From contig CAYJIU010000001.1 of the NCBI GenBank assembly GCA_964370305.1, forward strand, positions 2,091-66,090: a DNA stretch of 64,000 bases, in the 5' to 3' direction. The stretch is from an uncultured Desulfovibrionaceae bacterium (lineage in GTDB: Bacteria; Desulfobacterota; Desulfovibrionia; Desulfovibrionales; Desulfovibrionaceae). Of this stretch, positions 6,202-51,893 are shown piece after piece. The translations under genes and the position numbers were made by a program. A model generated the notes under the pieces. It worked only from the letters and a program-made list of their open reading frames with translations. It ran no database searches and was not told the origin of the DNA. Position 1 is the stretch's first letter, and every line of letters starts with the position of its first letter.

Positions 6202-6390
6202 ATATTATTTCAATAGTTAATATTAAAAAAATACTAATTCTTTGCACATAAATCTCAAAAACACAAAGTCAAGCAATGCGTTTAGAAGGCAATGCAAGAA
6301 AAATTAGCTTTTTAAGATAAATGAAATCTTCCCCCATAATCTGATCAAAAAACTGATTTGATACAATTAGATTATCTATGGGGAAAATTA

Positions 6391-6951: not shown

Positions 6952-7013
6952 AACTCCTCCAAATTTGAGAAATATTTACTATATAAAAAATCATCAACTT
7001 TTTAACCCATGCT

Positions 7014-8872: not shown

Positions 8873-8887
8873 ATATATTGGGTAGTT

Positions 8888-10540: not shown

Positions 10541-10547
10541 GAAGTGT

Positions 10548-11288
10548 ATGGCACAAAATACTAAAAATAATCCCGCGCAGGCCAAGGGCGGCAAGGGCGA
10601 TGCTGAGGCTTCTAGCAAGAAATCATTGACCTTAACCTTAAGCTTTTCCACCGTAACAACTTTTTGTGTGGTTTTGCTTGGTTGTGTTTGTATGGCCTTT
10701 GTGATGGGGGTAATTGTGGGGCGAGGTGATAATCCAGAAGCTCATTTGCCGCAATTTGCAACCCTGATGTCTGATGGCGAAGAAAAAAAGTCAGCAGCTA
10801 GTGATGATGCAAATACCGCTGAAGCTGGCACACCCAAAGCTAGCCAGCCTGAAGATAAGGTCATGCCTAAAGAAGAGCTAGATTATGCAACATTACTTAA
10901 AGATAAAGGTGCGCAAGAGCAAGATGCCACTGTGCCGGCTTTAGTTTTGACTGTGCCAAGTGCAGCAGAGCAAGCTTTGCCTGAACAAAGTAAACAAAAC
11001 CCTGCTCCGGTGCCAGTATTTGAAGACGTACCTGCTCCTAAACCGGAACCGGTGGTCTTTGACTATGTATTCCAAGTAGCTACTTTTACAGACGATGCCT
11101 CTGTTGATCGCTTGCGTGAACGTTTGGAAGGCAGAGGCTTGCGTACAAAGATGGAAAAGGCCGGTAAATTTTATAAAGTCTTGGTGATGATGCGCGGAAG
11201 TGCTGAGCAAGCCCAAGATTTGCGCAAAACTATGGTTGATATGAAGCTTGGGGAACCATTACAACGCGGTAAAAAAGCGGTACAATAA
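10548..11288 (+). CDS. SPOR domain-containing membrane protein
   Basis: It has an N-terminal TM segment, a low-complexity P/A/E linker, and a C-terminal SPOR-like ~75 aa (FQVATFTDDASVDRLRERL...). The start is taken at ATG 10548. Confidence 0.65.
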   Translation: MAQNTKNNPAQAKGGKGDAEASSKKSLTLTLSFSTVTTFCVVLLGCVCMAFVMGVIVGRGDNPEAHLPQFATLMSDGEEKKSAASDDANTAEAGTPKASQPEDKVMPKEELDYATLLKDKGAQEQDATVPALVLTVPSAAEQALPEQSKQNPAPVPVFEDVPAPKPEPVVFDYVFQVATFTDDASVDRLRERLEGRGLRTKMEKAGKFYKVLVMMRGSAEQAQDLRKTMVDMKLGEPLQRGKKAVQ

Positions 11289-12086
11289 ATGCTGAATTTT
11301 TTGGTTAATGTATGTGCCAATGTGGGTAATAAGTCACTCAATATGCTAGCCAGCATGGGTAGCATGTTACTTTTCTTGCTTGCATCATTGCGACATATGT
11401 TTAACGTATCGCATTTATTTTATAAAACGCGCGAACAAATTCATATTATTGGGGCAAAGTCACTCTTTCTCATTCTTTTAATTGGGATATTTTGTGGTAT
11501 GGTTTTGGGCTTGCAGGGGTATTATACCTTAGTTAAGTTTGGTTCCACTGGTTTGTTGGGGGCTGCCGTTTCACTTACGCTTATTCGTGAGCTTGGCCCA
11601 GTGCTTACTGCCATAATGCTCACCGGTCGGGCTGGTTCGGCCATGACGGCAGAAATTGGTGTCATGCGTATTTCAGACCAAGTGGACGCCCTTGAAGTCA
11701 TGGATATAGAGCCCATTGGTTACTTGGTAAGCCCGCGTCTTTTGGCCTCCTTGATTTCATTTCCATTACTTACGGCAGTTTTTGATGTAATTGGTATTAT
11801 TGGTGGATATTTAACCGGTGTGCTTATGCTTGGCATTAATGCTGGCGCGTACTTTTATGGTATTGAAAGTAATGTGGTTATGGCGGATGTTGTGGGTGGT
11901 TTCTCAAAATCCTTAATTTTCGCCATATTAGTTAATACTGTATGTTGTCATCAAGGCTATTATACGCATTTGAGGCGCGATAGTGTGGGCCCTGCGGCGG
12001 TGGGTAATGCCACAACTTCGGCTGTGGTAATTGCATGTGTGCTTATTTTGGTGGCAGACTATGTGCTTACGTCTATATTATTATAG
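11289..12086 (+). CDS. mlaE: phospholipid ABC transporter permease MlaE
   Basis: It is a multi-TM protein with RELGPVLTAIMLTGRAGSAMTAEIG and lies in an mlaEFDCA-type operon. Confidence 0.85.
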   Translation: MLNFLVNVCANVGNKSLNMLASMGSMLLFLLASLRHMFNVSHLFYKTREQIHIIGAKSLFLILLIGIFCGMVLGLQGYYTLVKFGSTGLLGAAVSLTLIRELGPVLTAIMLTGRAGSAMTAEIGVMRISDQVDALEVMDIEPIGYLVSPRLLASLISFPLLTAVFDVIGIIGGYLTGVLMLGINAGAYFYGIESNVVMADVVGGFSKSLIFAILVNTVCCHQGYYTHLRRDSVGPAAVGNATTSAVVIACVLILVADYVLTSILL

Positions 12087-19286: not shown

Positions 19287-21026
19287 TTATTCTGTGTCCT
19301 CACCACCTTGGTGTGCATCTTGCTTTTTAGCATCGTCCTCAGCTCTGAGTACGCGACGTAAAACCTTGCCCACTATGGTTTTGGGAAGTTCCTCACGAAA
19401 CTCTACGCTGCGAGGAATTTTGTAGGATGCAAGTTTGCTTCTACACCAAGCCATAACTTCAGCGCGGGTCATTTTTTCGCCTGGTTGCAGTACAATAAAC
19501 GCTTTTATGCTTTCACCGCGAACACTATCGTCAACGCCTACCGCCACAGCCTCAAGTATGCTTGGATGTTCAAGTAAAACTTCATCCACTTCACGTGGGT
19601 AAACATTGTAGCCACCTACAATAACCATATCTTTTTTGCGATCGGTAATATAAAAAAATCCTTCTTCATCCATGGTACCAAGGTCGCCGGTATATAGCCA
19701 GCCATTGCGCAGGGCTGATGCAGTTTCATCTTCTTTATTCCAGTACCCGGCCATGATTTGCGGGCCTTTGATGATAAGCTCGCCTAATTTGCCAGGTGCT
19801 AGGGTGAGGGAACCACCTTCCATATCCACGATGCGCGCGCGTGTACTAGGCAGTGGCATGCCGATGGAGCCAACCTTTTGATTATGAGATATTAAGGGGT
19901 TAATATGAGTGATGGGTGAGGCCTCGGTTAGGCCATAACCCTCAATAATGGTTGCGCCGGTAAGATCTTGAAATTTACGGAAATGCTCTTGAGGTAGCGG
20001 AGCAGAGCCGGAAATACAAAGCTTAATGCACTTTAAATCATAATCTGATAGATTTTTTTGCTGCATAAGCGATATATAGACTGATGGTGCACCTGGGAAG
20101 ATGGTTGGTTTATGTTTTTTAATAAGCTTTAGAACATCTTGCGGTACGTAGCGCGGCATGGGCAAGGATGTACCCATAATGGCCGTAGGAATAATGAGCC
20201 CAACGCATAAACCATAAACATGGAAGAAGGGTAAAAGGGCCACAAGTTTATGATGCTCGTTGACAGCCTCACTAATAACACTGAGTATTTGTTGACAGTT
20301 TGTTCCAATATTAGCATGAGTTAGCATGACACCCTTGGGCAATCCTGTTGTGCCTCCGGTGTATTGTAGCATGGCCACAGTGTCGGCCGTGATACGTTGT
20401 TTTGCACAGTACCGATGGGTGGATGTGAACATATTTTTCCACTGCACTATATCTTCATGATTATAAGGCACTTCCACATGTGTATTGCTGCGTTTTGCCT
20501 TGAATTTGTACAGGTAATTTAGGGGAAAGGATAGGGCATCGCCAATGCAAGTGATGATGTAGTTTTCGATGGGCAGTCTATCGCGCAATGGATCAATCTT
20601 CGTCCAAAGTAAATCCAGCATGATTAGATGCTTAGCACCAGAATCTTGCATATGGTGAATGATTTCTGACTCCATATAAAGTGGGTTAGTCATAACGGCA
20701 ATGGCCCCCGCCTTCATTACACCCCAAAAAGCGATAATAGCTTGGGGTACATTGGGGAGCATAATGGCGACACGATCACCATGATTAACGCCCATGAGGC
20801 GTAATGATGATGCAAAAACTTCTGCCTTATCACGCAGTTGCGTATAATTAATCTTGGTATTTTGAAAGATAATTGCCGCACGGTTAGGGTGCTGTCTTGC
20901 CGCGGCATCAAGTAGGGCAAAGATAGGTTGATTAAAAGTATCAACCTCATGCACAACACCTTCATCATATTGTTGTAGCCATGGTTTTTCATCAAAATGC
21001 TGAGTTGGTATAGCTTGTTCTGTCAT
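19287..21026 (-). CDS. long-chain fatty acid--CoA ligase (AMP-binding enzyme)
   Basis: Motifs present are YTGGTTGLPKGV, GYGLTE, YTGDLG and PKTIVGKVLRR. Confidence 0.85.
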   Translation of the reverse strand: MTEQAIPTQHFDEKPWLQQYDEGVVHEVDTFNQPIFALLDAAARQHPNRAAIIFQNTKINYTQLRDKAEVFASSLRLMGVNHGDRVAIMLPNVPQAIIAFWGVMKAGAIAVMTNPLYMESEIIHHMQDSGAKHLIMLDLLWTKIDPLRDRLPIENYIITCIGDALSFPLNYLYKFKAKRSNTHVEVPYNHEDIVQWKNMFTSTHRYCAKQRITADTVAMLQYTGGTTGLPKGVMLTHANIGTNCQQILSVISEAVNEHHKLVALLPFFHVYGLCVGLIIPTAIMGTSLPMPRYVPQDVLKLIKKHKPTIFPGAPSVYISLMQQKNLSDYDLKCIKLCISGSAPLPQEHFRKFQDLTGATIIEGYGLTEASPITHINPLISHNQKVGSIGMPLPSTRARIVDMEGGSLTLAPGKLGELIIKGPQIMAGYWNKEDETASALRNGWLYTGDLGTMDEEGFFYITDRKKDMVIVGGYNVYPREVDEVLLEHPSILEAVAVGVDDSVRGESIKAFIVLQPGEKMTRAEVMAWCRSKLASYKIPRSVEFREELPKTIVGKVLRRVLRAEDDAKKQDAHQGGEDTE

Positions 21027-22412: not shown

Positions 22413-22786
22413 TACAAGAGTCGGACTATAAGCCGGGTTCTGTCATATGCTATTGTTAAAAACAAGAGCAAGAGACCGCCATTCCTCTAGGGATATGATT
22501 ACTCATATCCTCAAGCAACCTACCCGAAAGGTTTGACCGGGCAAGTCACCTTTCCTATTTGGTTTTGCTCCCAATGGGGCTTGCCTAGCTTGCCATGTCG
22601 CCATGACAACTGGTAGGCTCTTACCCTACCGTTTCACCCTTACCCCATATTCATGGGGCGGTTTACTTTCTGTTGCGCTTGCCGAGGGTTGCCCCCCCTG
22701 GGTGTTACCCAGCATTGCGCCCTATGGAGCCCGGACTTTCCTCCCCGTAAAAAATTACGCAGCGGCGGCCCGTCCGACTCTTGTAA
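22413..22786 (-). ncRNA. rnpB: RNase P RNA, bacterial type A
   Basis: The minus strand carries GGGGAGGAAAGUCCGGGCUCC, GGUAAGGGUGAAACGGUAGGGUAAGAGCCUACC, GAGCAAAACCAAAUAGG, GGGUAGGUUGCUUGAG and GACAGAACCCGGCUUAU. P1 pairs CAAGAGUCGGAC (5') with GUCCGACUCUUG (3'). Confidence 0.95.
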
Positions 22787-32984: not shown

Positions 32985-33213
32985 GGTAGCTCCTAGGAAT
33001 AGGTTATTATTCATAAAAAATAAATTGGTTTTGTATGTAGAAGTATATACGGAAAAAAAACAAAATGGAATAGGTGTTTTTATACAAAATGCATATAAAT
33101 TTATCAAAGTCTAAGACCTTTTGCACAATTGTGTAGGGGCTTCTTGTATTTTGACTTGTAAAAAACTAGATTATGCTTGACAACACCTTAAAATGATAGT
33201 ACTTTGCCAACCC

Positions 33214-33846
33214 ATGAAAGCACCAATGAAGTTTATGAATAATAGATTTGTTTTGTGTTGTCTGATACTTATGTGCCCTTTTATTTTTTTGGGCTGTGCC
33301 ACAAAAGCTCCCGTAGAAGACTCTATTTCCAAACAAGAAAGATACGCTCAATATTTTCAAGAACACCACAAGGCTATACTTGTACCCACTGCCGAGAGTG
33401 CTTTGGGAACAAAGTATAAGTTTGGTGGTACCAGTGAACAAGGTTTTGATTGTTCGGGCTTTGTAAAGTGGGTTTATAGCCATGCTGGTGTTAATTTGCC
33501 GCGTACAGCGCGTGAGCAATCAAGACTTGGTGAACTTGTAAAAAAAGAATCGGATATGCAAGTGGGTGATATTGTAGCTTTTTATCATCCAAGGCGTGGT
33601 TATCATACCGGTATATATTTGGGTGAAGGTAAGTTTGTGCATAGCCCACGTAGACGAAAATCTGTGCGTGTGAGTGAACTATCTACTTCTTATTTTAGCA
33701 AAAACTTTTTAGGTGCGCGGCGAGTGGTCGAAAATATAAAAGAAGCAGAAATGGGTGCCGCGCAAGAACTTCTTGAAAAATATGAATTAAAATCCAAAGC
33801 TCAGGCCAAAGCTAAAAGCAAATCCAAGAAAAGTAAAAAAAGTTGA
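33214..33846 (+). CDS. NlpC/P60 (C40) peptidoglycan endopeptidase lipoprotein
   Basis: It has a lipobox FLGC, the catalytic FDCSGFVKWVY, HTGIYLG and a K/S-rich tail. The start among several in-frame ATGs is uncertain. Confidence 0.85.
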   Translation: MKAPMKFMNNRFVLCCLILMCPFIFLGCATKAPVEDSISKQERYAQYFQEHHKAILVPTAESALGTKYKFGGTSEQGFDCSGFVKWVYSHAGVNLPRTAREQSRLGELVKKESDMQVGDIVAFYHPRRGYHTGIYLGEGKFVHSPRRRKSVRVSELSTSYFSKNFLGARRVVENIKEAEMGAAQELLEKYELKSKAQAKAKSKSKKSKKS

Positions 33847-33909
33847 AACCTTTGCACTTAAAATTTGATAATACGACTTTCTGGCTTGACCAAGAAAGTC
33901 GTATTGATG

Positions 33910-33958
33910 TCTAGGCAACACTGAAAAAACATGACAAACATCTGAAACAATTTATTTT
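33910..33958. repeat. diverged copy of the MITE-like right-end sequence
   Basis: The sequence ctaggcaacactgaaaaaacatgacaaacatctgaaacaatttatttt aligns with tagtcgacactgaaaaaccatacaaaacattgaaaataaattatttt. Confidence 0.3.
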
Positions 33959-33983
33959 ACTCCGTGCAAGTTTTTTGTTTAGT

Positions 33984-34027
33984 AAATAAAGCGGCCTCCT
34001 CAAATACTTGGGGAGGCCGCTACTTTT
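33984..34027. terminator. bidirectional intrinsic terminator between nlpC-like gene and ppaC
   Basis: A 9-bp GC-rich stem gcggcctcc/ggaggccgc is flanked by an A-rich run upstream and a T-rich run downstream. Confidence 0.7.
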
Positions 34028-38601: not shown

Positions 38602-40704
38602 CTATGTGTATTCGCCTTGTTCTTCTTGCAACGCAGGGTCATCTTTGTACTTTTCTTGAATGGCAAGCATGGTGTCTAATATTTCTAAAAAGTCCTCAAC
38701 CATTTGCGGGTCAAAGGCAGTGCCTGAGTCTTTTTTGATAATTTCAAGGCTTTTTTCAAGCGGTATGGGAGCTTTATAGCAACGCGGTGCTAATAACGCG
38801 TCAAAAACATCCACAATGGAAGTAATGCGAGCTTCAAAAGGTATGTCCTCACCGGAGAGTATGGGGCCTTCGGGGGCACCGCAATAGCCTTTGCCATCCC
38901 AGCGTTGATGGTGGTGCATGGCAATGCTTGAAGCCAGCTTATCCAGAGTAGTGCTTGCATCTTTGAAGATTGCTGCACCAATGGCGCAATGCTTTTGCAT
39001 GATTTGTCGCTCTTCAAAGGTAAAAGGCCCTGGCTTTTTGAGTATTTGGTCAGAAATACCCACCTTACCCACATCATGGAGCATGGAGGCAAGGCGCAAA
39101 TGCGACTTAGTGTCAGATATTTCTAAAATATCAACTCCGCGTTTTTCTGCCCAGTGATGATACAATTCTGCAGCCATGGCGCCCACACGAAATACGTGGG
39201 GGCCTGTTTCTGTGGGGTCGCGCATACGCGTTGTTTCTAGCAAGCGCAAAAGCATTTCCCGCGTATTGATGGCTTGCTCAATACCTTGGGCACCAGCTTG
39301 ACAAAGCTTGCGTAATGTAGACTCAACAGAAATAGTAAAAGGTACTGGCGTATCATCGCGCATAGCGTTGATAACTTGCATAACACCAAGAAGTTTGCCA
39401 CGTTGTGAAAAAATGGGTAGTCCGCAAATGGATACGGTGCGATAGCCCGTGGCATCGTCAAAGGCTTGATTAAATGAGTATGGCGCATCCTTGGGAAGAT
39501 TGCGTACATCGTTGATATTTAATATTTTATGAGTATATGCAATATAGCCAGCTATGGAGTCAGGCGCAATGGGTAAACGCGCATTTAGATACTGCTGGCG
39601 GGCTGATTGCACACTGGTAAAGAGGGTATCGTTATGCGAATATGAAAAAACTAATTCATCCTCTTCAAGCAAATATATGGTGCCAGCATCGGCTTTGGAT
39701 ATATTTCTAGCCCGCAGTAGCAAACGGTCTAAAACCGTACTCATATCTGGAATATCCATGAGTTCTGATGAAAATTGGCAATCATTGCAGTCTTCTATAT
39801 CTGGAGCAACGTGCAGGCTATCACTGCTGCTAAGGTCTTCATCGCAATCTACGGTTAGGCCCTCATAGGCCATAATTAATGTATCCTTAGTGCGTGGATC
39901 CTCTTGGATAAGTTTCATGCTGATGTCGTCAATGAGGTCATCATCATAGCTTGGGTCGTAGTGAGTGGGCATAAATACCCTAACCCCAAGCTCGTGTACT
40001 ATGGGGGGCCATTGTTCAATGGATGAGTGCCCCCAGCCTTGATGCTTAGCGTAATTATCAAGTGTATATTGTGAATCTAAGATAGCTATATCAGCACCGC
40101 GCAAACCCTTAAAGAAGGAGCTTTGCCGATCAAGGCTGTCAGGGTCTGGCCCTAGTTCATGGTCACCGCTGTAAAATATGCTTTTGTTATTGCGCTCAAC
40201 CCTATAGGCGCATGCGTAAAGACCATTTACGTCTTCTCCACCATGGTTGGTAGCGTGTGCTGAAACGCGAACCCCGCCCTCAAGATTAATAACTTGCCCA
40301 TCACTTAAGGGAACAATTTTTCTTTTACTGGCTAGTTGATCCCAAGTGACTGGGAAAAATGTGGAAGAAAATAAAGAATTAATGAAGTCTACAGGTGTAA
40401 GACCGCCAATGGATTCGGGGGCGTAAATGGTTACTGACCATTGGGGGCTGTATAAGGGGATAAAAAATGGCATGCCTGAAACGTGATCCCAATGGCTGTG
40501 TGTTAAAAATATAGCACACTCTTTAATCCTAGCACCATCTTTTAGGCAGGCACCAAGTTTGCGTAAACCAGTGCCCGCATCCAATATGATATATGGTGCA
40601 GGATCTGTGTTTATAGCATAGCAAGAGGTGTTACATCCATAGCGAGCAGAAGTCACACAACTGCCAGAAGTAGAACCACGTACACCCCAAAGTTGTAATT
40701 GCAT
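38602..40704 (-). CDS. multidomain signalling protein: N-terminal MBL-fold hydrolase + GAF + HD-GYP-type phosphohydrolase
   Basis: The MBL part has LWGVRGS and THSHWDH. The GAF-like core has DAGTIYLLEEDELVF...GYRTVSICGLPI...GVMQVINA. The HD-GYP-like part has HDVGKVGI and HHHQRWDGKGYCG. Confidence 0.75.
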   Translation of the reverse strand: MQLQLWGVRGSTSGSCVTSARYGCNTSCYAINTDPAPYIILDAGTGLRKLGACLKDGARIKECAIFLTHSHWDHVSGMPFFIPLYSPQWSVTIYAPESIGGLTPVDFINSLFSSTFFPVTWDQLASKRKIVPLSDGQVINLEGGVRVSAHATNHGGEDVNGLYACAYRVERNNKSIFYSGDHELGPDPDSLDRQSSFFKGLRGADIAILDSQYTLDNYAKHQGWGHSSIEQWPPIVHELGVRVFMPTHYDPSYDDDLIDDISMKLIQEDPRTKDTLIMAYEGLTVDCDEDLSSSDSLHVAPDIEDCNDCQFSSELMDIPDMSTVLDRLLLRARNISKADAGTIYLLEEDELVFSYSHNDTLFTSVQSARQQYLNARLPIAPDSIAGYIAYTHKILNINDVRNLPKDAPYSFNQAFDDATGYRTVSICGLPIFSQRGKLLGVMQVINAMRDDTPVPFTISVESTLRKLCQAGAQGIEQAINTREMLLRLLETTRMRDPTETGPHVFRVGAMAAELYHHWAEKRGVDILEISDTKSHLRLASMLHDVGKVGISDQILKKPGPFTFEERQIMQKHCAIGAAIFKDASTTLDKLASSIAMHHHQRWDGKGYCGAPEGPILSGEDIPFEARITSIVDVFDALLAPRCYKAPIPLEKSLEIIKKDSGTAFDPQMVEDFLEILDTMLAIQEKYKDDPALQEEQGEYT

Positions 40705-41095
40705 TTCAAGCCTCAGCTTATATAATGTTCAGTCAAAAGTATTCTAAGCCAGTAAATTACCGTATTCAATATGGAAATATTTTAGTAATCGCGGAACAAA
40801 ATTTGCAAAATATACTAGCAAGGGTATTGTAAGCAGGCGTGTTTGAATTGTCAATATGAAAAACGGAATACTTGAACAAAATTACGTGTGGGCAAGATGT
40901 TACTTGGGCAATTGTATGCGTTTTAAGTGAAAAGTTTTTTATAACAGTATGTTATATTGTAATTGTTTTTATGTTGCATGCACGTTATAGTTATGAAACA
41001 GCACGGAATGTTGTTTAATGTTTTATATCAGAAATATCTGGTAAAGCATGGCAATTTTCAATGGTGCATATTTAATTTTCATGGTGAGTATAGTA

Positions 41096-42529
41096 ATGAA
41101 AAAAACATTTACAGCGGTAATGCCAGATAAGGTCGGGGTATTTTTATTAGCAGAAGAGGTATTTGCATCATTAAATTTAAATATTACACGCATTAGCTAC
41201 AATAAAGCTGTGGATTCTCGTATGCTTTTTATTGAGGTTGAGGGTGAAGAACAATCTATAATATCGGCCACAGAACAATTGCACGCCTTAGGTTACCTCT
41301 CAGAAAACAAAAAATCTGGCAATGTTATTTTATTTGAATTTCGCCTGGAAAATAGAAGTGGCTCTCTTATGCCTGTACTTGAGCTTATTAACCAATATAG
41401 CTTTAATATTTCTTATATGAGCTCTCAAGAAAGTGATACAGATTATCAATTTTTAAGAATGGGATTGTTTATAGAAAATGATGACGATATTTCCTCATTC
41501 ATCAAAAGCGTAGTTAAAATTTGTGATGTTAAAATAATTAATTATAATCAAACAGGATTAAGTTTAGATAATACTGTTTTTTATATGACTTTTGCTAATA
41601 AAATTGCTGAGCAAAATAATTTGAATGACGTTGCAAAGCAAAATTTATTGGTTGATACTAATATCATAATGGAAACACTGGCAAAAAAAGACTGCCAACC
41701 CCATGCTGTCTTTGAATCCATAGGTAAATTTGCTGAAAATCTAATTAAGTTTAAGGGGGATAAATTTAATGCCAGAGTTAGTGCACATGATTTAAATAGT
41801 GGTATAAAAATTAGGCTTATTGAGCCACCATGTGGTAGTAACACTTGTATAATTGAAACTAAATCCGAAATTATAGCCATAGATGGTGGATTTACTTGCT
41901 ACCAAAGAGAAACATTAAATATCATAAAAGATATGTTCCCAAATTTTGATGACATGCACCAGCACTTGCTTTTAACTCATGCAGATATTGATCATGTGGG
42001 ACTTACGGGAGTTTTTAATAATATTTACGTGAGTCAAAAAAGTTATGATAATTTTATTTGTGAGCTGCAAGGCAGATCAAATATTCGTGAAAAAAGTGCC
42101 CACCATGCTCCATATGTACGTATAAGCAAAATTTTATCACATTATAAAACCCCACCTATGGAAAAGCTCTGCATAATTGGGGGTAGTAGTCAAACAATCA
42201 ATACTGATTTAACGGAAAAAATCGGTATTTTACAATTTGATGGTTTGTGCCTGGAAGTTTATGAAGTCATTGGCGGGCATTTGCCAGGCGAAATTGTATT
42301 TATTGAGCGTGAGCATCGTTTATGTTTTAGTGGTGATATTATCGTTAATATTAAGGGTTTTACCGATGACCAAGCAGAGTTTAATAGGCTTGCACCGCAT
42401 TTAGTAACCTCTGTGGATAGTGATCAACAGCTGGCCGCTGAAGAAAGAAAAGCTGTGCTAAGCTTGCTTGACGCAGGGCAATGGTTGATTATAGGTGGGC
42501 ATGGCTTAGCTATGGAGGTTAGCGTTTAA
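41096..42529 (+). CDS. ACT-ACT-MBL-fold protein (putative ligand-regulated metallo-hydrolase)
   Basis: It has two ~70-aa ACT-like modules and then an MBL fold with THADIDH, GGH, SGD and GGHG. The start is set at MKKTFT (ATG 41096). Confidence 0.6.
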   Translation: MKKTFTAVMPDKVGVFLLAEEVFASLNLNITRISYNKAVDSRMLFIEVEGEEQSIISATEQLHALGYLSENKKSGNVILFEFRLENRSGSLMPVLELINQYSFNISYMSSQESDTDYQFLRMGLFIENDDDISSFIKSVVKICDVKIINYNQTGLSLDNTVFYMTFANKIAEQNNLNDVAKQNLLVDTNIIMETLAKKDCQPHAVFESIGKFAENLIKFKGDKFNARVSAHDLNSGIKIRLIEPPCGSNTCIIETKSEIIAIDGGFTCYQRETLNIIKDMFPNFDDMHQHLLLTHADIDHVGLTGVFNNIYVSQKSYDNFICELQGRSNIREKSAHHAPYVRISKILSHYKTPPMEKLCIIGGSSQTINTDLTEKIGILQFDGLCLEVYEVIGGHLPGEIVFIEREHRLCFSGDIIVNIKGFTDDQAEFNRLAPHLVTSVDSDQQLAAEERKAVLSLLDAGQWLIIGGHGLAMEVSV

Positions 42530-42543
42530 GACTACATTATCCG

Positions 42544-42575
42544 ACTTTCTAATTTGCAATAGAAAGTATTTTTTA
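42544..42575 (+). terminator. intrinsic terminator after ACT-MBL gene
   Basis: The hairpin actttcta-atttgcaa-tagaaagt is followed by ATTTTTT. Confidence 0.65.
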
Positions 42576-42627
42576 ATATACTATGCGATTATTTTGCTTT
42601 AACTGGTTGTCATGTTTTTAGTATAAC

Positions 42628-45015
42628 TTATCCTAGATATTTGCGTAATTTTGCAAATACCTCATTGAAGTCCAAGGGTTTGCCTAGGTGCCCATTCATG
42701 CCCACATTTTTGCACTTTTCCACATCTTCTTTGAAGGCATTGGCGGTCATAGCAATAATAGGAATGTTTTTTGCTTTTTCTGAATCCATATTGCGGATGT
42801 GCATGGTTGCTGTATAGCCATCCATTTCCGGCATGCTAATATCCATAAAAATTAAATCATAAATATCGGGATTTTTTTGCATTATCTTAACAGCTTGTAA
42901 GCCATTTTCAGCAATGTGTACGCTTACATTAGTACTTTCAAGTAAAGCTATTACAATTTCACGATTGATTTCAATATCTTCTACTAATAAAATTGTTTTA
43001 GCTGAAAAATCTGATGCTGTATGCTCCGCTGGATGCTGTATTTCCACATGTTTGGATATGTCGTCTGAATCTGGAAGGGTGCATTGAATATTAAAGGTAA
43101 TAGTGGTTCCCTTGCCTTGCTCAGATTCAAGTATGATGTCCCCATTGAGTAGCTTTATAATTTGTTTGCAAATGGCTAAACCAAGGCCCGTGCCTCCAAA
43201 CTTCTTAGATATTTGTGAATCTGCCTGTTGGAAGGGTTTGAATAATAGTTCTTTTTGCTCTTCATTTACCCCAATTCCAGTATCGCGCACAGTAAATTCT
43301 AAATTGCAATGCTTTCCATCATTTTCTACAACGCGTACTCCAAAGAAGATATGCCCATTGGGTGGGGTGAATTTTTCGGCATTGGATAATACATTTGTTA
43401 GGACTTGAGCTAAGCGTTGTTCGTCAGAGATTATGTATTTTGGTATGTTGTGATCAATGCTAGCATCAAAAAGTTGTCCTTTTTCGCGCATTTTAAATAC
43501 AATTACACTTTCAATTCGATTTAATAATTGCATGAAATTAAAGCAGTCTAAATGTATATCAATTTTTCCAGCTTCGATTTTAGACATGTCTAGCACATCA
43601 TTAATAACGCCAAGTAAGTGTACAGATGCCGTTTCAATTTTTACGATGCAATTTCTTATCTTGTCTATATCATTAGTATCTTGAGATATTTTTGCCATGC
43701 CAATTATAGCATTCATGGGGGTGCGCATTTCATGGCTCATATTGGCTAAAAAATTTGATTTAGATTCATTGGCGGCGTTGGCTTGCTCCATAGCTTGCGC
43801 CATTTCTTTATTATATGCATCTAGTTTATCACGCAATTCTCCAATGGTTCGAGATAGCTTGCCAAATTCGTCTTGTCGTTCTTGGCCATAAATAAGCCCG
43901 CTACCCTGCAAGTTTGTTTGCTCAAGGCTTTGCATCATTAGGTTTAGAGGAGTAAAAATTAGTTTTTTAGTTATAAGTTTTAGGCTAATTATATATATAA
44001 CAAGTATAATAACTATACTCCAAAGTAATACCTGAAAGTTTTTAAAATTAAATAATGAATCAGCATTGAAAAACGTTATAACAGACCAATCAGTCATCGC
44101 GATGGGGGTAATAGATGCAAAGCTATACTCAGCATTGCCCATTAATTCTATCACCACTGGTTTGTCGTTTAAGTCAAAATATCTATTAATACTATCTAGA
44201 TAGTTATTTAAGCGTTGGGTAAAAATAGGCCAAGGGAATACTTCTTGAACTTTTAGTGTGCTATCATCAAAAAACTTTGTTTTTTCGTATACGCTATCGG
44301 TTTGAATAAGGCCTTTGCTGTCAACAACCACACCTCTGATGTTTGCTTGTTCATAGTCGTCAAAAGCGCGTTTTAGTATTTTATCAAATGGAAATCCGGT
44401 CGAAATGACACCAAGTACTTTATTATCTTTAGATAAAACCTTATGATTAACCCAAACCATCTCACGTTTTTTTATTTTATCAATATCTACGTTTAAAACG
44501 TAATTGTGAGGTGAACTGGCACTTTCAAAAAACCAACCGTCATCAACTCCATCTTTGTTAAGAGTGGCGCTGTGTTTGAAATCTTCGCGAGGGGTATCAA
44601 TTTCAAAGCTAAATTCATGGCCAGATTTTGCTATGCCAAAGTATAACAATTTACTATCAAGCACTTCTAAGAAATCTTTCATTTTTGCATAGGCCAAGTC
44701 TTTTTTTATGGGGTCTTGCTCGTCGTTAAACCAGTCTATGATGAGTTTGGAGTTGGCAATGCTGGATATAAGCGTAATCTCTCTATGTAGGTATGCGTTG
44801 ATACTTCCAGTTGTTTTTATGGAGTATAGCTCCGCATAATCCCTTGAAATATCAATGGTGGTAGTACGAATTATACCAATGGCCAACCATAAAAGTATGA
44901 CGCAAAAAATTGTGAAAATGAGCAAGTTCAACGAGCCAAATACAAATTCAATCCTTTGTTTGCTGTCGTTTGTTCTCAAAAAGGAACGGCTAGTTTTTGA
45001 CATGTTTTTACTCAT
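42628..45015 (-). CDS. hybrid sensor histidine kinase/response regulator with extracytoplasmic Cache-like domain
   Basis: Two TM segments flank a ~290-aa periplasmic domain. It also has the H-box [14 protein letters not shown], an HATPase ([15 protein letters not shown]) and a REC domain ([14 protein letters not shown]). Confidence 0.85.
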
Positions 45016-45457
45016 TATCCATCTCGTTATAAAATATTAATAATTTTTCTCGCTCATATGAATGTTATAATATCATATTTGTAATATTTTGTAAAGATAA
45101 CTAACATGATATAGTAGATGGCTCTACGACACTTTACCGATAAATCAAGAGCTAGGCGCAATTTACTTGCGCCGTTGAGCAATTGATTTTCGTGCCTTTC
45201 CGCTTGGCAGCTTCGCTGGCAATAGCGGCGCAAAACCCACGAAGTGGGGTTTGTCATCAAACTGAAGCCCCCTGCACAATGAATTGTATGGAGTCTTTAG
45301 GATATAATTATCTGCTAATTACGATTTAGGGCAGGAAAAAATAGAAGAAAGGTTGATGCAAAAGATGCAAGAAATTGTAATCTAATACTTTACTTATAGA
45401 TTGCCTTATGTTACATACTTTAAAGTATATGCGAACAAAACTTATAAAAAGGTAATT

Positions 45458-47746
45458 ATGAATTTTAAAAGCATTTCAGCCCGCATAATCTTTTCAGTCT
45501 TGCCCATGGCGGTGCTATCAACATTAATATATATGCTAATGGTTTACTATATTGTAAGTCAGCAGACAAGTGCGCAGTTTGATGCTCGTATGTTGGAAAA
45601 TTTAAATGCCGCGCATTTACAAATTTTCTCGGAATTGCGTGAAAATACTAACGTCGCTAGCAGTTTAGCAATATATGCTAGTACGACTAGTAGGGATTTT
45701 AAGCTTGAGCAGTTACAAGCTATATTAACGCAGGAAATTGCTCATAATGCAAATACAGTGGGTGGTGGTATTTGGTTTGAACCTCATGTTATTTATGAGC
45801 ATAAAAAAATCTTTGGCCCTTATGTATATAAAGATAATGATAAACTATTTTGGGTGCCTGACTATGCAGACAAGGTAAATTATCACGAAGAAGAATGGTA
45901 CAAACTAGGTGCAGCATCTAAGGGGGCAGTGGTTTGGTCTGATGTATATTATGATCCAGTAGCTAAGGTGACTATGGTTACGGCCTCAGTCCCTTTTTTT
46001 GATGAGCAAGGGGAGCTTATGGGAGTGACCACTGCTGATATGTCCTTAAATACCATTAGGGAGATAACATCATCCATTGCTATTGGTAATACGGGCATGG
46101 CCTTCTTGGTGGGAAAGAAGGGGAAGTTTATTTCTTTTTTTGATGAAAGTAGAGGCATTAATCACAATATTAGCACCGATGATAATCTAGAATTATTAAA
46201 ACTAGGTAAAGCCATCCTTAACGAAGATGATGGCTTAACCTCCATGCAATGGAATAACAAACAATACCGTGTTTTTTTTAGCAGTATTGCAGATGTTGAC
46301 TGGAAGCTTGTAGTCATGATTGACACTGATGAAGTGGGGCAAGTGGCAACGGGTTTAATCTTTCCCATGCTTGTACTGTTTGTTTTAGGACTTTTTCTTA
46401 TTTCTTATGCCATTATTTCCACCGCCAGACATTTTACTAGAGCAACAAAAAAAGTTAATCATTTTGCGGATAAAGCTGCATCAGGTGATTTGAGTGAGCG
46501 TATTGTCATTACGGGGATGGATGAATTTTCCATCATGGAAGATAGGCTAAATGTAATGATGGACAACCTTGCAAAAATGACTGAACAATCAGAAAATATG
46601 TTGCAAACAGCTCAAAAAGCCAATGCAGCCAAAAGCCAATTTCTATCCAATATGAGCCATGAAATGCGCACCCCCATGAACGCTATCATGGGTATGGTTC
46701 AACTGGCAGAACAAACAAATGATATTAATAAATTACAGGGGTATATAAGTACAATTGGCTATTCCTCACAAAACCTTTTATCGCTCATTAATAATATACT
46801 TGATATGGTTATGGTGGAATCTGATAGCCTTAGTGTAAGGGTTTCGCGGGTTTCACTTAATGAGGTGAGTGATAAAATTTATAAAATGTTTTTAGCCGAA
46901 GCGCAGGAGAAAAATATTAATTTTTCCATCATCATTGATGAAAATATTCCAACTGTTTTTTATACAGATGAACTGCGTTATATGCAAATTATAACAAATC
47001 TTGTGAGCAATGCCGTAAAATTTACTCCGCAAGGTAAAATTCATGTGGCTTGGTCGCTTGTGGATAAAACTGGCACATCTATTGTGATTGAAGCAAGAGT
47101 CAGTGATTCTGGTATTGGTATTCCTGCTGAAGCAATTGACGGTTTATTCCTTGCTTTTACTCAAGTGGACAGCAGTAGCTCGCGTAAATATGGTGGAAGT
47201 GGGCTTGGTCTTGCGCTTTGCAAAGAGCTTGTGGAGCTGCTTGGTGGAAAGATTTGGTACGAGCAAGGGGCAGATGGAGGTAGCATCTTTGTCTTTACGG
47301 TTAAAGCCGAAATCCAAGAAGAACAAGAACAAAAATGCCTTGATGCTAATACTTGTTATGATTTTAAGGATAAAACCGTGCTAATAGTTGATGATGTTTT
47401 AATTAATCGTGAAATTATTATCGCCATGTTAGAAGAAACTGGTATAGGCATTGAGCAAGCAGAAAATGGCATGATTGCTTGTGAACTGTTTGCTAAAAAC
47501 CCTGAAAAATATGATATAATTTTTATGGATATTCAAATGCCAGAAATGGACGGCCTCAGTGCTACAAGGCAGATTAGGAGCATGGAAGAAGGTGCCCATG
47601 TACCCATTATTGCCATAAGTGCCAATGCCTTTGAAGACGATATTAAAGCCAGTGCCACTGCCGGTATAAATTTACATTTAGCTAAACCGGTGAATCAACA
47701 AGACATGCTAAAAGCCATGGATCGCATTTTTAAAAATACCTGTTAA
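45458..47746 (+). CDS. hybrid sensor histidine kinase/response regulator with dCache-like domain and HAMP
   Basis: The start is taken at MNFKSIS. It has a periplasmic Cache-like domain, HAMP, the H-box [14 protein letters not shown], an HATPase (DSGIGI, GGSGLGLAL) and a REC domain (DIIFMDIQMPEMDG). Confidence 0.85.
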   Translation: MNFKSISARIIFSVLPMAVLSTLIYMLMVYYIVSQQTSAQFDARMLENLNAAHLQIFSELRENTNVASSLAIYASTTSRDFKLEQLQAILTQEIAHNANTVGGGIWFEPHVIYEHKKIFGPYVYKDNDKLFWVPDYADKVNYHEEEWYKLGAASKGAVVWSDVYYDPVAKVTMVTASVPFFDEQGELMGVTTADMSLNTIREITSSIAIGNTGMAFLVGKKGKFISFFDESRGINHNISTDDNLELLKLGKAILNEDDGLTSMQWNNKQYRVFFSSIADVDWKLVVMIDTDEVGQVATGLIFPMLVLFVLGLFLISYAIISTARHFTRATKKVNHFADKAASGDLSERIVITGMDEFSIMEDRLNVMMDNLAKMTEQSENMLQTAQKANAAKSQFLSNMSHEMRTPMNAIMGMVQLAEQTNDINKLQGYISTIGYSSQNLLSLINNILDMVMVESDSLSVRVSRVSLNEVSDKIYKMFLAEAQEKNINFSIIIDENIPTVFYTDELRYMQIITNLVSNAVKFTPQGKIHVAWSLVDKTGTSIVIEARVSDSGIGIPAEAIDGLFLAFTQVDSSSSRKYGGSGLGLALCKELVELLGGKIWYEQGADGGSIFVFTVKAEIQEEQEQKCLDANTCYDFKDKTVLIVDDVLINREIIIAMLEETGIGIEQAENGMIACELFAKNPEKYDIIFMDIQMPEMDGLSATRQIRSMEEGAHVPIIAISANAFEDDIKASATAGINLHLAKPVNQQDMLKAMDRIFKNTC

Positions 47747-47751
47747 ATTCG

Positions 47752-48624
47752 CTACAGCAATCGGGATTGTAGCTCAGTAAATAGGGCTTTACGTAGTGGC
47801 GTTGGGCCACTTTCCTTACGCTCAATGCAATAGAACATACGGTCAAAGCGCATATTGGATATTGTAACCACTGCCAACGAACCATCTTGTATTTCATGTT
47901 CAACTACTAAGGGTGATAGGCAAGATAATGTTCTTGGATTATGGAGCAAGTGCTTAATGGCATCGGTGTGAGCTAGCTCCAATGATTGTTCGGGGCGTAA
48001 ACCTAAGGGGGTTATATGGCGCAAGAAAGTTTCCCTTGTGCCTGAACCTGCTTCACGAAGTAGCCAAAAATATTGCATAAGCTCTTCTATGCTCCTTGGC
48101 TTACTAGCTAACTTTTGATCAGTGGTCACAACAACTAACTCCTCTCTGCCAAGGGGAGTGATTACAAGGTCAACAGCATCTACATCTCCTTCTACAAATC
48201 CCATATCAAGCTGCCCACTTTCTACTTGTTGAACAATTTCGCTAGTATTGGCAGATAGACAATCCAACTCTACATGGGGGTAGCGAATCTTCATATCATA
48301 TAAAACCTGCGGGATAACCCAATTGGCCAAGGTAACTGATGCTCCCACAAAAAGTTTTCCTAAAAGCTCATCGCTAGAAAGCAGTGCTAGGACGTTATCC
48401 AATTGATGATATAGGGGGGCAAGACGTTTTGCAAGTAGGCGACCTTTTTCATTTAATTTTATATTGCGTCCCACGCGATCAAAAACTTCAACACCTATAT
48501 TTGATTCAAATTCTCTTAAGGCACTGGAGATGGCTGCTTGTGATACAAACATCTTATGCGCCACATCCCGCATATTTGGGGTTTGGGCTAGGGCTAGAAA
48601 AACTTCCATGTACCTTAAAGTCAT
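47752..48624 (-). CDS. LysR-family transcriptional regulator
   Basis: It has an N-terminal wHTH (MRDVAHKMFVSQAAISSALREFE) and a LysR substrate-binding domain. Confidence 0.9.
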   Translation of the reverse strand: MTLRYMEVFLALAQTPNMRDVAHKMFVSQAAISSALREFESNIGVEVFDRVGRNIKLNEKGRLLAKRLAPLYHQLDNVLALLSSDELLGKLFVGASVTLANWVIPQVLYDMKIRYPHVELDCLSANTSEIVQQVESGQLDMGFVEGDVDAVDLVITPLGREELVVVTTDQKLASKPRSIEELMQYFWLLREAGSGTRETFLRHITPLGLRPEQSLELAHTDAIKHLLHNPRTLSCLSPLVVEHEIQDGSLAVVTISNMRFDRMFYCIERKESGPTPLRKALFTELQSRLL

Positions 48625-49850: not shown

Positions 49851-51893
49851 CTAGCTTGAAGTATTAGCAAGTTGAATTTGTGCAACTAAGATGGTCATGG
49901 CATCACCATCATCGTTTGTATTGGTAAAAGCAGTATAACCATCTGGTATGTTACCGGTATGTTGCTGCGTCCAAGAACTATCAACAGTGATATCACCATT
50001 TTCGTCTTGCTCAACACCATCAAGCTTGCTAAAGAGGTCTTGAGTGCTAGTGGTGGTAAGGTTATTTAGAGTGTCACTAAAAACTATCAATTCTGCATTG
50101 GCAATATGGCCATCTTGCACCATATCCATAACTTTACCAAGCTCACTAGCATCGGCCAAAAGCACGTCTAATCCATCACCAGTATCAACAGAAACAACAT
50201 CATCAACATTACCGTAAAGTTTGACTAAATCATTACCTCCGCCAGAAGCAAGGCCTTCAAAATTGTTAATATCGGTTTGGTCTTCACCTCTAATGAATAT
50301 TTCATTACCACGCATGACTATGGTGTCGTCAGTATTGCTATTATAATTGAAAATGTCATCACCAAGGCCACCGTCAATGTTTACTCTATCACCGCTATTA
50401 GTTTCAATATCATCAACAGTTACGGTATCATTACCGGAGTCACCATCAATCACAATAGATTGATTTCCGGAGGCACTAAGGTCAATTTTATCAATATTAA
50501 TTTGATCATCGCCGCCAACTGCTGCGTTGGAAACAACCTTACCTTCACCATAGATTTCGCCACCCTTCATGGTGCCTACGTTAATAACGTCATCTCCACC
50601 CTTGGTGCCAGCATTTAGAGTCCAACCATCACCAAGTATGCTACCATATTCCATATTTTCAACATTAACGGTATCATCGCCACCTTCTACGCCATTAAAT
50701 AAATTGCCATCAGCGCGAATTTTGGTGCCGTTAAGTGTATCAATATTGATAATGTCATTGCCCACATCTTCTTGCTTGTGCAGGTTTAGGGCATCGCCAT
50801 AGATGAAGGTGTCATCTTCAAAGTCTGCTTTATTGAGGTCGTTTTGTGTGCCGGTAGCTGTCTTTACAGTTAGGGTATCATCACCATCGCCAAGGAGCAT
50901 GCCATTTACATGGTGATTGCCAGCATTGGCATCATTAGCATAACTACTAAACTCTTGGGTGTAGCTGGTATTGGTGTTTACGTCTGTAACTATGGCAGAA
51001 TCTGCCTGAAGGTTTTCAACAAAAAGGTTTTCATCAACGTCATTACCAACGGTTACACTAATATCATATGTGACGCCATCTGGATCTGTGGCTGTGTATA
51101 TAAATTCAAAATTATCCGCGCCAATATTGTCAATATTAGTGGTTAAAGTGTAAGTACCATCAGGGTTTACACTAAAATATGTACCATTTTCATGGATGAA
51201 TATAGTACCACCCGTGGTGGTGGGGGCAAAACGCCAACCAGTGGGGTCAATCAAGGTAATTTGAGTAATAATAGTGCCTTCCGGTACTTCGTCATTGGCT
51301 AGCAAGTTACCGGTGAGCCTAGAGCCAGCATCAGCGGCTAATAAATCGTCCTTGGTGGTGTACACAGGGGGAGCCGGCGTAGTGGGTAGCGTGGTGATAG
51401 GTGGCGTTGCAGAACCAGTAGTAGGGGGAGGTGTCGTTTCGGTTGGAGTAAAGGGAAGGTCATTATTAGGCTGAACAACACTAGCAGTGGCTATATCCAC
51501 AACTAATTCATTTTCAATGTTAAGGCCGTCAGTGGCATCAATACCACTAAGTAAGGTGCCAGCTTTAAATCCTACATTGGTGCCACTACCGCTAGGCGCG
51601 CTGGTGTTACCAAGGGCAGGCATGAGCTCTTCACCGAGGCTTGTAAAAAAAGCTTCGCCAGACACTGTGCTACCTTCAATTACAAATTCGGGCATATTTT
51701 CAGCACCGTAGGCAGTGTAGAAGTTGGTTAACTCAATACTTGCACCATCCTCAAAGGTAAAGGTTAAGCTATCACCTTCACGGGTTATGGTTGCAGAGTC
51801 GGCAGTAAACTCAAGGTTTATGCGGTCATCGGTTTGAGGGGCAACGTTAATAGCTTGCCCAGGCAGAGGTCTGCTTAGAATAATATCGGCCAT
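49851..51893 (-). CDS. large secreted acidic repeat protein, RTX/adhesin-like (probable type I secretion substrate)
   Basis: It has no N-terminal signal peptide and AAGGAG upstream. It contains a P/T-rich linker, a cadherin/VCBS-like module (LLANDEVPEG...YTATDPDG) and ~25-aa GGDD/GNDxINV repeats. It is extremely D/N/G/T rich. Confidence 0.6.
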   Translation of the reverse strand: MADIILSRPLPGQAINVAPQTDDRINLEFTADSATITREGDSLTFTFEDGASIELTNFYTAYGAENMPEFVIEGSTVSGEAFFTSLGEELMPALGNTSAPSGSGTNVGFKAGTLLSGIDATDGLNIENELVVDIATASVVQPNNDLPFTPTETTPPPTTGSATPPITTLPTTPAPPVYTTKDDLLAADAGSRLTGNLLANDEVPEGTIITQITLIDPTGWRFAPTTTGGTIFIHENGTYFSVNPDGTYTLTTNIDNIGADNFEFIYTATDPDGVTYDISVTVGNDVDENLFVENLQADSAIVTDVNTNTSYTQEFSSYANDANAGNHHVNGMLLGDGDDTLTVKTATGTQNDLNKADFEDDTFIYGDALNLHKQEDVGNDIINIDTLNGTKIRADGNLFNGVEGGDDTVNVENMEYGSILGDGWTLNAGTKGGDDVINVGTMKGGEIYGEGKVVSNAAVGGDDQINIDKIDLSASGNQSIVIDGDSGNDTVTVDDIETNSGDRVNIDGGLGDDIFNYNSNTDDTIVMRGNEIFIRGEDQTDINNFEGLASGGGNDLVKLYGNVDDVVSVDTGDGLDVLLADASELGKVMDMVQDGHIANAELIVFSDTLNNLTTTSTQDLFSKLDGVEQDENGDITVDSSWTQQHTGNIPDGYTAFTNTNDDGDAMTILVAQIQLANTSS

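Follow-up and report, generated by a model that had tools for sequence, protein, structure and literature searches.

Does a contiguous AT-rich stretch of a bacterial chromosome amount to one laterally acquired functional module, or can it hold genes of different origin? The question is raised by positions 40705–45457 of a 64,000-nucleotide stretch of DNA from an uncultured Desulfovibrionaceae bacterium (hereafter the window), where a gene encoding two tandem ACT domains and a C-terminal metallo-beta-lactamase (MBL) fold, here called ACT-MBL, is convergent with the gene for a hybrid histidine kinase, HK1. A first, sequence-only reading had suggested that the block may be a laterally acquired module in which an ACT-ligand-gated hydrolase is paired with an extracytoplasmic sensor kinase. 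The reading that we favour, with a probability of about 0.65, is that the AT-rich stretch is a composite, in which an imported stand-alone gene for a gated hydrolase lies beside native kinases that are not linked to it. The elements concerned are the following, with G+C content (GC) given as a fraction and protein length in amino acids (aa).

40705–41095, no strand: AT-rich intergenic region of 391 bp (GC 0.309) between a divergent MBL-GAF-HD-GYP gene and the ACT-MBL gene
41096–42529, plus strand: ACT-ACT-linker-MBL gene, 477 aa, predicted cytoplasmic, no transmembrane segment
42628–45015, minus strand: HK1, hybrid histidine kinase, from Pfam, transmembrane scan, orthologues and synteny with LysR in the relative L082
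45458–47746, plus strand: HK2, hybrid kinase with MCP-like PDC1/dCache, HAMP, HisKA, HATPase_c and REC domains
47752–48624, minus strand: LysR-type regulator, 89% identical to the LysR of L082

The block had been recognised from hand counts of G+C in eight single lines of 60 nt, all of which proved exact. It is indeed more AT-rich than its flanks: with a GC of 0.345, positions 40705–45457 form the lowest 4753-nt window of the 64 kb (non-overlapping windows, 0.425 ± 0.011). Its far edge had been drawn too early, however, as 1-kb windows of 0.315–0.369 extend from 41001 to 47000, a trough of about 6 kb that takes in HK2; line 46201, earlier counted as outside, therefore lies inside the block. 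Two other 1-kb windows of low GC stand isolated elsewhere, at 33001–34000 (0.361), which overlaps an open reading frame (ORF) at 33193–33846 with a third-codon-position GC (GC3) of 0.289, and at 6001–7000 (0.369). Composition per gene was referred to the other 46 ORFs of the window.

Other 46 ORFs: GC 0.433 ± 0.021, GC3 0.365 ± 0.033
ACT-MBL: GC 0.341, GC3 0.264 (lowest in the window)
HK1: GC 0.358, GC3 0.330
HK2: GC 0.376, GC3 0.327

Relative to these genes ACT-MBL is 4.5 standard deviations (SD) low in GC and 3.1 SD low in GC3. For HK1 and HK2 the deficit arises at the first and second codon positions, with a GC3 only about 1 SD low. In the proteins of the block, I, N, F and K are over-represented and A, G, R and P under-represented. 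The compositional deviation predicted for the block is found in windowed GC and not in synonymous codon usage, which is not deviant for ACT-MBL, HK1 or HK2.

In order to place the kinases, gene order was compared with that of related genomes. The ProS protein of the window is 66–70% identical to that of named Desulfovibrionaceae (Desulfovibrio, Nitratidesulfovibrio, Oleidesulfovibrio and Halodesulfovibrio) in a homology search, and at least 25 relatives carry a ProS that is 75–87% identical; to judge from its genes, the host is a Desulfovibrionales bacterium. In the relative L082 (GCA_964371345.1), XseA (86% identical), ProS (87%), IspG (88%), the PNP_UDP gene (77%) and LysR (89%) stand in the same order as in the window. 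There, an HK1 orthologue (68%) comes directly after LysR; YchF, a sulfatase and a radical-SAM gene stand next, and neither HK2 nor ACT-MBL is present at the locus. The HK1 orthologue of L082 is GC-poor too (0.384 vs 0.427 for its locus). From the LysR-HK1 synteny and this GC-poor orthologue, it follows that HK1 is native to the lineage and that its AT-richness is inherited. The synteny with L082 breaks exactly between HK1 and the ACT-MBL gene. Three further relatives keep the IspG-ProS-XseAB-IspA-Dxs core, and on the signalling side they diverge or the contig ends. In one relative, L089 (GCA_964371835.1), three tandem 33-aa ORFs are found at the contig end (95–469), just past the PNP_UDP gene, where the synteny with the window stops.

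HK1 itself has a sensor of about 270 aa bracketed by two transmembrane segments (residues 31–49 and about 322–340), followed by HisKA, HATPase_c and REC domains (63, 99 and 87 bits in Pfam), and lacks an Hpt domain. Its description as a Cache-type hybrid kinase is clear for the transmitter and receiver; the sensor is a divergent, dCache-like one, for which dCache_1 reaches 21.7 bits against a cutoff of 45, with an alignment that spans positions 9–238 of the 240 in the profile. HK1 paralogues at 48% identity bear precomputed PF02743 matches. The ORF of HK2 opens at a TTG at 45401, while its likely start is the ATG at 45458. HK2 has a clear MCP-like PDC1/dCache sensor, with HAMP, and its 36.6% identity to HK1 is confined to the transmitter and receiver. 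It sits between LysR and HK1, a position that it does not occupy in L082, and no orthologue of it appears among the 120 listed homologues of HK1. HK1 and HK2 would be fast-evolving signalling genes, of which at least HK1 is native, and their AT-richness would come from an Ile/Asn/Phe/Lys-rich composition.

If the whole AT-rich block were one acquired module, in which a Cache sensor kinase is paired with an ACT-ligand-gated hydrolase, the adjacency of the two genes, their convergent orientation across a 98-bp spacer and the low GC of ACT-MBL, HK1 and HK2 alike would all be accounted for. The convergent layout is as first described; convergent genes, however, cannot be co-transcribed, and neither an output-domain response regulator nor an Hpt protein connects ACT-MBL to HK1. 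In the kinases it is the first two codon positions, and not GC3, that carry the GC deficit, and L082 has the syntenic LysR-HK1 pair, with an HK1 orthologue that is GC-poor as well, at a locus without ACT-MBL. Of the HK1 orthologues in related metagenome-assembled genomes (MAGs; 68, 65 and 58% identical), the latter two lie in the contexts DnaB-HK-RlmN and DnaE-PTPS-HK, so that an ACT-MBL gene is next to the kinase at none of the three loci examined. Concomitantly, a histidine kinase occurs within 10 kb of ACT-MBL at a single one of 65 family loci in other genomes, where it is not adjacent but seven to eight genes off. The scarcity of this linkage and the kinase orthologues without ACT-MBL indicate that the pairing is coincidental. 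We therefore reject the kinase-hydrolase module, on synteny and on the family-wide neighbourhood counts, as well as an island made of the whole block, which shows no mobility hallmarks and in which HK1 is native, with a low GC that is inherited and sits in codon positions 1 and 2. Comparative data largely refute the module, as far as gene order and gene content can tell, and we consider it very improbable; the hydrolase-kinase pairing of the sequence-only reading does not hold, as no conserved kinase linkage was found. The adjacency of HK1 and ACT-MBL would be accidental rather than a partnership, and their convergent layout fortuitous.

In the composite reading the ACT-MBL gene came from elsewhere. 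In 59 other genomes the ACT-MBL gene lies on average 1.3 GC points below its neighbours (SD 2.7), with GC3 slightly higher, and none of these control loci approaches the 9.2-point deficit of the window. The GC dip is therefore not a family trait, and low GC as an intrinsic property of ACT-MBL genes was rejected on this comparison (mean −1.3 vs −9.2). The 34% GC of the window gene agrees with that of copies in low-GC Clostridia. The window copy and P0002, a protein 69% identical to it, group as sisters in a neighbour-joining tree, nested among Bacillota sequences. A word-indexed search over 5.8 billion sequences, with 8000 candidates scored, found just one sequence more than 60% identical besides the window's own protein. 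Only two copies are known, whereas ProS orthologues come from at least 25 related genomes. The ACT-MBL gene was thus probably acquired by horizontal transfer from low-GC anaerobic Bacillota (gut Clostridia), and the simplest reading is that this lineage gained it once, and not very recently. The gene would have been imported by a Desulfovibrionales lineage and now stands at the synteny break. Lateral acquisition, first suggested for the block as a whole, is plausible for ACT-MBL alone and is not supported for the kinases, given the synteny of HK1 in L082.

Several observations weigh against this reading. The synonymous codon usage of ACT-MBL is no worse than that of native genes. No tRNA, integrase, transposase, mobility gene or meaningful flanking repeat was found around the block in the window, the long inverted repeats there being the paralogous kinase genes themselves. 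The junction between HK1 and ACT-MBL is a rearrangement and not a clean empty site, with L082 as the sole informative relative. P0002 (locus L001) lies in a different context, with PhoH, 7TM-HD and YbeY, and is GC-poor for its locus (0.417 vs 0.475); the tetranucleotide correlation of L001 is 0.52, where confirmed relatives give 0.50–0.65 and unrelated loci 0.17–0.41, which suggests that its genome may be a relative of the host. P0002 (69%) has diverged about as far as the HK1 orthologue (68%). If L001 is related, the gene may have been acquired long ago, or may even be an ancestral one that was lost many times since.

These observations feed the alternative that nothing in the block is foreign, ACT-MBL being an old gene, vertically inherited and often lost, and the block being AT-rich through weak expression and AT-biased amino acids. 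Such a history would agree with the 69% homologue in a possibly related MAG that has diverged like the HK1 orthologue, with the ordinary synonymous codon usage, with the failure to find mobile-element marks and with the I/N/F/K-rich composition that the proteins of the block share. It is at odds with the GC3 of ACT-MBL, the lowest of the window and about 3 SD under the mean, with the family-wide control, which shows no inherent GC deficit of the gene against its host genome, with the nesting of the window copy and P0002 inside a Bacillota-dominated tree, and with the two copies known against at least 25 related genomes that have ProS orthologues. We regard it as unlikely, and retain the composite reading with an imported ACT-MBL gene. 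Compared with a classical genomic island, the locus shares a contiguous GC trough of about 6 kb and one gene with both phylogenetic and compositional signs of foreignness; it differs in its mixed origin, with HK1 syntenic and native, a single gene apparently acquired, and no tRNA, integrase, repeats or mobility genes.

In agreement with a stand-alone gene, ACT-MBL looks self-contained, in that an upstream region, a Shine-Dalgarno-like motif and a weak terminator-like hairpin are all proper to it. The longest form of the ORF that ends at 42529 on the plus strand opens at 41048, while a start at 41096 (MKKTFT...) agrees with the N termini of 29 aligned homologues and is preceded at 7 nt by the Shine-Dalgarno-like GGTGAG. 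The intergenic region 40705–41095 is presumed to be the promoter region; it has no Rfam match at E ≤ 1, and promoter-like matches upstream of the gene are no commoner than in shuffled sequence. Control by a riboswitch or leader was rejected, as none was found upstream of the gene in the window (E ≤ 1) or at 18 other family loci, where T-boxes lie downstream of the ACT-MBL gene or at a distance. Past the stop codon the following element is found.

42544–42575, plus strand: weak terminator-like hairpin with an 8-bp stem and an 8-nt loop, then UAUUUUUU; begins 15 nt past the ACT-MBL stop

Folding gives this hairpin −10.1 kcal/mol (z = −2.0), and the opposite strand has no significant structure. 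A simple terminator scan overlooked it because its stem is poor in G-C pairs. Its place after the ACT-MBL stop suggests that the gene is a monocistronic unit.

The protein was then divided into four parts, whose boundaries on the DNA are as follows.

41096–41299, plus strand: ACT domain 1, residues 1–68, with an invariant G14 in the beta1-alpha1 loop and an invariant NITRxSYNK strand
41321–41542, plus strand: ACT domain 2, residues 76–149, with an invariant G89 in a D-x-P-G-like loop
41543–41773, plus strand: three-helix linker, residues 150–226, with invariant LDNTVFY, N189 and F206
41774–42526, plus strand: MBL-fold domain, residues 227–477, with a predicted local distance difference test (pLDDT) above 90 and a Foldseek probability of 1.0

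The tandem ACT and C-terminal MBL architecture read from the letters of 41096–42529 is borne out by Pfam, an AlphaFold model and Foldseek together. The second ACT domain exceeds its Pfam cutoff (ACT_AHAS_ss, 31 bits vs 27) and the first is sub-threshold in the window protein (ACT, 18.1 bits vs 27). Across the family, however, ACT is matched in 28 of 30 aligned members (best 3e-12), with two stretches matched in several of them, and the Pfam matches in this region comprise ACT, ACT_AHAS_ss, ACT_4 and Thr_dehydrat_C. For the second domain, the profile search of the PDB gives acetohydroxyacid synthase (AHAS) small subunits, the Rel ACT domain, PheH and prephenate dehydratase. In the alignment-based AlphaFold model (mean pLDDT 82.6, above 90 over residues 220–477), residues 2–68 and 76–149 form two beta-alpha-beta-beta-alpha-beta units, where pLDDT is just 50–85. 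DSSP assigns E2–8, H15–25, E29–35, E43–49 and H52–64 to the first unit (E, strand; H, helix), and E76–85, H92–100, E104–110, E117–126, H130–139 and E144–149 to the second. A linker, estimated at first as some 100 aa, is indeed present, but comprises about 77 aa with helices at 159–173, 178–197 and 202–218. Lactamase_B (PF00753) is marginal in the window protein, at 22.9 bits against a gathering threshold of 22.7, while it is matched in all 30 aligned relatives at E ≤ 0.01 (best 2.7e-9) and covers the entire domain in several family members. Foldseek retrieves MBL structures with the sandwich fold at probability 1.0 and TM scores (target) of 0.54–0.66, with an identity of merely 11–18%. At the level of fold, the protein is thus a bona fide member of the ACT and MBL superfamilies.

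The motifs that had been quoted for the protein are all where they were said to be, the ACT-like strings at residues 5 and 78, THADIDH at 294–300, GGH at 393, SGD at 412 and GGHG at 467, and all sit on invariant columns of the family. The putative metal ligands are H295, D297, D299 and H300 (nt 41978–41995), H395, D414 and H469. The first motif departs from the canonical H-x-H-x-D-H and reads H-A-D-I-D-H, with an Asp at the second ligand position that is invariant in 30 of 30 members, as are the downstream ligands H395 (GGH), D414 (S/TGD) and H469 (GGHG). H-x-D-x-D-H is a variant motif, as in some other branches of the MBL superfamily. Under the canonical MBL scheme, site 1 would consist of H295, D297 and H395, site 2 of D299, H300 and H469, and D414 would be the bridge. 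With Asp in place of the second His, site 1 would be richer in carboxylate, which would favour Fe or Mn over Zn; carboxylate-rich sites of the flavodiiron type are the ground for this preference.

Could the MBL domain be a di-iron centre rich in carboxylate, one that senses O2 or NO or reacts with them, in the manner of flavodiiron or ODP proteins, coupled to ACT metabolite sensing in strict anaerobes? Flavodiiron proteins have an H-x-E-x-D-H site, which the H-x-D-x-D-H, H, D, H ligand set parallels with a carboxylate for the second His of motif 1. Their hosts are anaerobic too, the present family being confined to strict anaerobes, and occasional neighbours are rubrerythrin, Mn-catalase and FMN reductase. 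A few members also have weak matches to PF19583 (ODP). These are found in two of the 30 aligned members, however, at no more than 26.5 bits against 27.2 and over about 50 residues; P0511, a distant member, does score 28.0 bits, but across 79 residues only, and the window protein has no ODP match at all, whereas Lactamase_B covers the entire domain in several members. Moreover, the residue is Asp and not Glu, no fused or recurrent flavodoxin, rubredoxin or chemotaxis partner was found in the domain scan and neighbour survey, and no flavodiiron or ODP structure is among the sequence and profile matches in the PDB or the top 50 Foldseek matches. Membership of PF19583 is therefore unsupported, its matches being short and almost all sub-threshold, and we hold the di-iron explanation to be quite improbable, less so than the kinase module and more so than vertical inheritance of the gene.

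We prefer to see the ACT-MBL protein as a cytoplasmic, allosterically gated binuclear metallohydrolase. It resembles generic MBL hydrolases (PF00753, including the glyoxalase II/YcbL-type 2xf4 and the subclass B1 enzyme BcII) in its alpha-beta/beta-alpha sandwich and in the ligand positions of motifs 1–4. It differs from them in its 11–18% identity, with E values of 0.03 to 1e-6 over partial stretches, in the clade-wide H-x-D-x-D-H, in the extra, conserved three-helix extension at the N terminus and the tandem ACT pair, and in having no curated equivalog. Unlike beta-lactamases, it has neither a signal peptide nor a transmembrane segment, and nothing points to beta-lactamase activity. With ACT-regulated enzymes (IlvH/IlvN, the C terminus of threonine deaminase, phenylalanine hydroxylase, prephenate dehydratase and Rel/SpoT) it shares two ACT units, loop glycines and matches to Pfam and PDB profiles, a likeness that suggests allosteric control by an amino-acid-like ligand; it departs from them in that the ACT pair is joined to an MBL-fold catalytic domain, and catalytic modules without ACT exist. 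To judge from the conserved loop glycines G14 and G89, the ligand of the tandem ACT pair is probably a small metabolite, and likely an amino acid or a compound derived from one, and the three-helix segment would relay ligand occupancy to the MBL active site.

How far does this architecture extend? The search described above, which scored 8000 candidates, gave at least 2963 relatives at E ≤ 1e-3. Of these, the 120 listed are about 470–480 aa long and 45–69% identical to the window protein, and the names they carry at source are generic, either 'MBL fold metallo-hydrolase' or 'Zn-dependent hydrolase'. Counting one genome per species, at least 563 species have the family; the great majority are gut or anaerobic Clostridia, and it is also carried by Atopobiaceae, Methanocorpusculum, Treponema and Lentisphaeria. 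An exhaustive HMMER scan of 1.84 billion cluster representatives gave only 507 matches at E ≤ 1e-3, of which 100 reach E ≤ 1e-30, and the clade is therefore sharply set off from the rest of the MBL superfamily. The alignment of 30 members has a mean column identity of 61%, and further invariant residues of the family are EPPCGSN (243–249), R331, H337 and N418, together with LDNTVFY in the linker. Of 36 full-length representatives, 32 keep H-x-D-x-D-H, even at an identity as low as 23%.

Relatives that lack the ACT domains and consist of linker and MBL (about 300–350 aa) begin at query residues of about 140–205 (among proteins P0381–P0480), although some of them may be truncated gene calls. They retain H-x-D-x-D-H in 20 of 25 cases, and the motif is also kept in the full-length set at 23–29% identity. 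On this conservation, H-x-D-x-D-H can be taken as the signature of the clade. As the ACT-less forms keep the helical segment together with the MBL domain, the linker and MBL make up the catalytic unit, to which the ACT pair is a regulatory add-on.

The initial remark that no ACT-ACT-MBL enzyme has been characterised agrees with our searches. In the full-text literature we found no paper on an ACT-MBL fusion and no characterised ACT-ACT-MBL enzyme. Sequence, profile and fold searches of the PDB gave generic MBL and ACT matches alone and no specific relative, and no curated NCBIfam model covers the window protein, its distant relatives or the ACT-less forms. Transfer of function was rejected on both counts, the solved structures (phmmer, profile and Foldseek) offering generic MBL and ACT matches only and the curated families no applicable model. 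An anti-phage defence role was likewise discarded, as PADLOC gives a negligible LmuA-like motif match (E = 2.8e-4, 18 bits). To all appearances, the ACT-ACT-MBL clade is large, conserved and uncharacterised, and belongs to no characterised subfamily.

Genomic neighbours offer some hint of the substrate but do not fix it. At about 9 of the 65 loci, all in Clostridia, a fusion of an XRE-type helix-turn-helix (HTH), a cupin and an AMP-forming acyl-CoA synthetase (755–800 aa) lies immediately upstream on the same strand (fusion-bearing loci L031, L059, L061, L066, L069, L072, L073 and L078). In three Methanocorpusculaceae MAGs (L024, L026 and L029; about 7946–11407), ACT-MBL follows argJ and argB with gaps of 7–8 bp or overlaps, a row that looks like an arginine-biosynthesis operon. 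Our best guess, which rests on the synthetase fusion as the sole recurrent neighbour, is that the substrate is a thioester, an acyl-adenylate or a phosphoester; with low confidence, we would guess at a thioester or acyl-adenylate hydrolase under the control of amino-acid status. The sole AMP-binding gene of the window (19287–21026) was judged unrelated: its identity is 25–28%, it has no HTH-cupin part, and it is 20 kb off. On its functional side, too, the composite reading has facts to contend with: the acyl-CoA ligase link is confined to about 15% of loci, the operon partners are heterogeneous (argJ-argB, FMN reductase in Treponema, GNAT, LarA and PfkB), and neither the PDB nor the curated families hold a structure or model close enough for function to be transferred.

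A bolder proposal is that the clade is a functionally new class of enzyme in strict anaerobes and has passed between Bacillota, Actinomycetota, Spirochaetota, Desulfovibrionales and methanogenic Archaea, whose members are metabolite-gated Fe/Mn binuclear enzymes with a substrate new to the MBL fold, the window copy being a recent cross-phylum import. It could, for example, proofread or recycle acyl-adenylates or acyl-CoA from the co-located HTH-cupin-acyl-CoA synthetase, with the ACT pair tying activity to amino-acid status. We put this forward tentatively, as a possibility that is more doubtful than likely.

The remainder of the window has the character of a core chromosome, with PyrG, ProB, ProA, IspG, ProS, XseA, Dxs and the RNase P RNA. 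The latter is of bacterial class A, at 22413–22781 on the minus strand, with a full-length match of 326 bits. Five window proteins were found in a collection of 90%-identity clusters, each as the sole member of its cluster. Divergent from ACT-MBL, a gene at 38602–40704 on the minus strand encodes a 700-aa protein made of an RNase-Z-like MBL (Lactamase_B_2), GAF and an HD domain of the HD-GYP type; the junction of MBL with an output of the c-di-GMP-phosphodiesterase type is an unusual architecture. The similarity between the two back-to-back MBL-fold genes (38602–40704 and 41096–42529) is at motif level only, for which reason they were rejected as paralogues. A 680-aa protein encoded at 49851–51893 on the minus strand is without an NCBIfam match at E ≤ 1e-10. 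At the same place, next to IspG or ProS, four relatives have proteins of similar size without a Pfam match: L082 one of 907 aa, L088 two of 680 and 668 aa, L089 one of 662 aa and L090 one of 694 aa. Homology was checked for the L082 counterpart only (53% identity). The 680-aa protein looks like a lineage-specific one with no assigned function.

Altogether, the locus is a cautionary one: a contiguous AT-rich trough can mix one import with native genes that are GC-poor through their amino-acid composition, and adjacency within such a trough is no evidence of a functional module. The value of the finding lies in the family, which is large, conserved, cross-domain and unannotated, and not in the architecture of the locus. 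ACT-ACT-MBL proteins are 45–69% identical across phyla and across the divide between Bacteria and Archaea, are widespread in gut and other anaerobic microbiomes, and are labelled merely 'MBL fold metallo-hydrolase'. Once the ligand, metal and substrate are worked out, thousands of genes would be annotated, and a superfamily that matters in medicine and metabolism would gain a new regulatory architecture, the combination of tandem ACT domains with an MBL fold.

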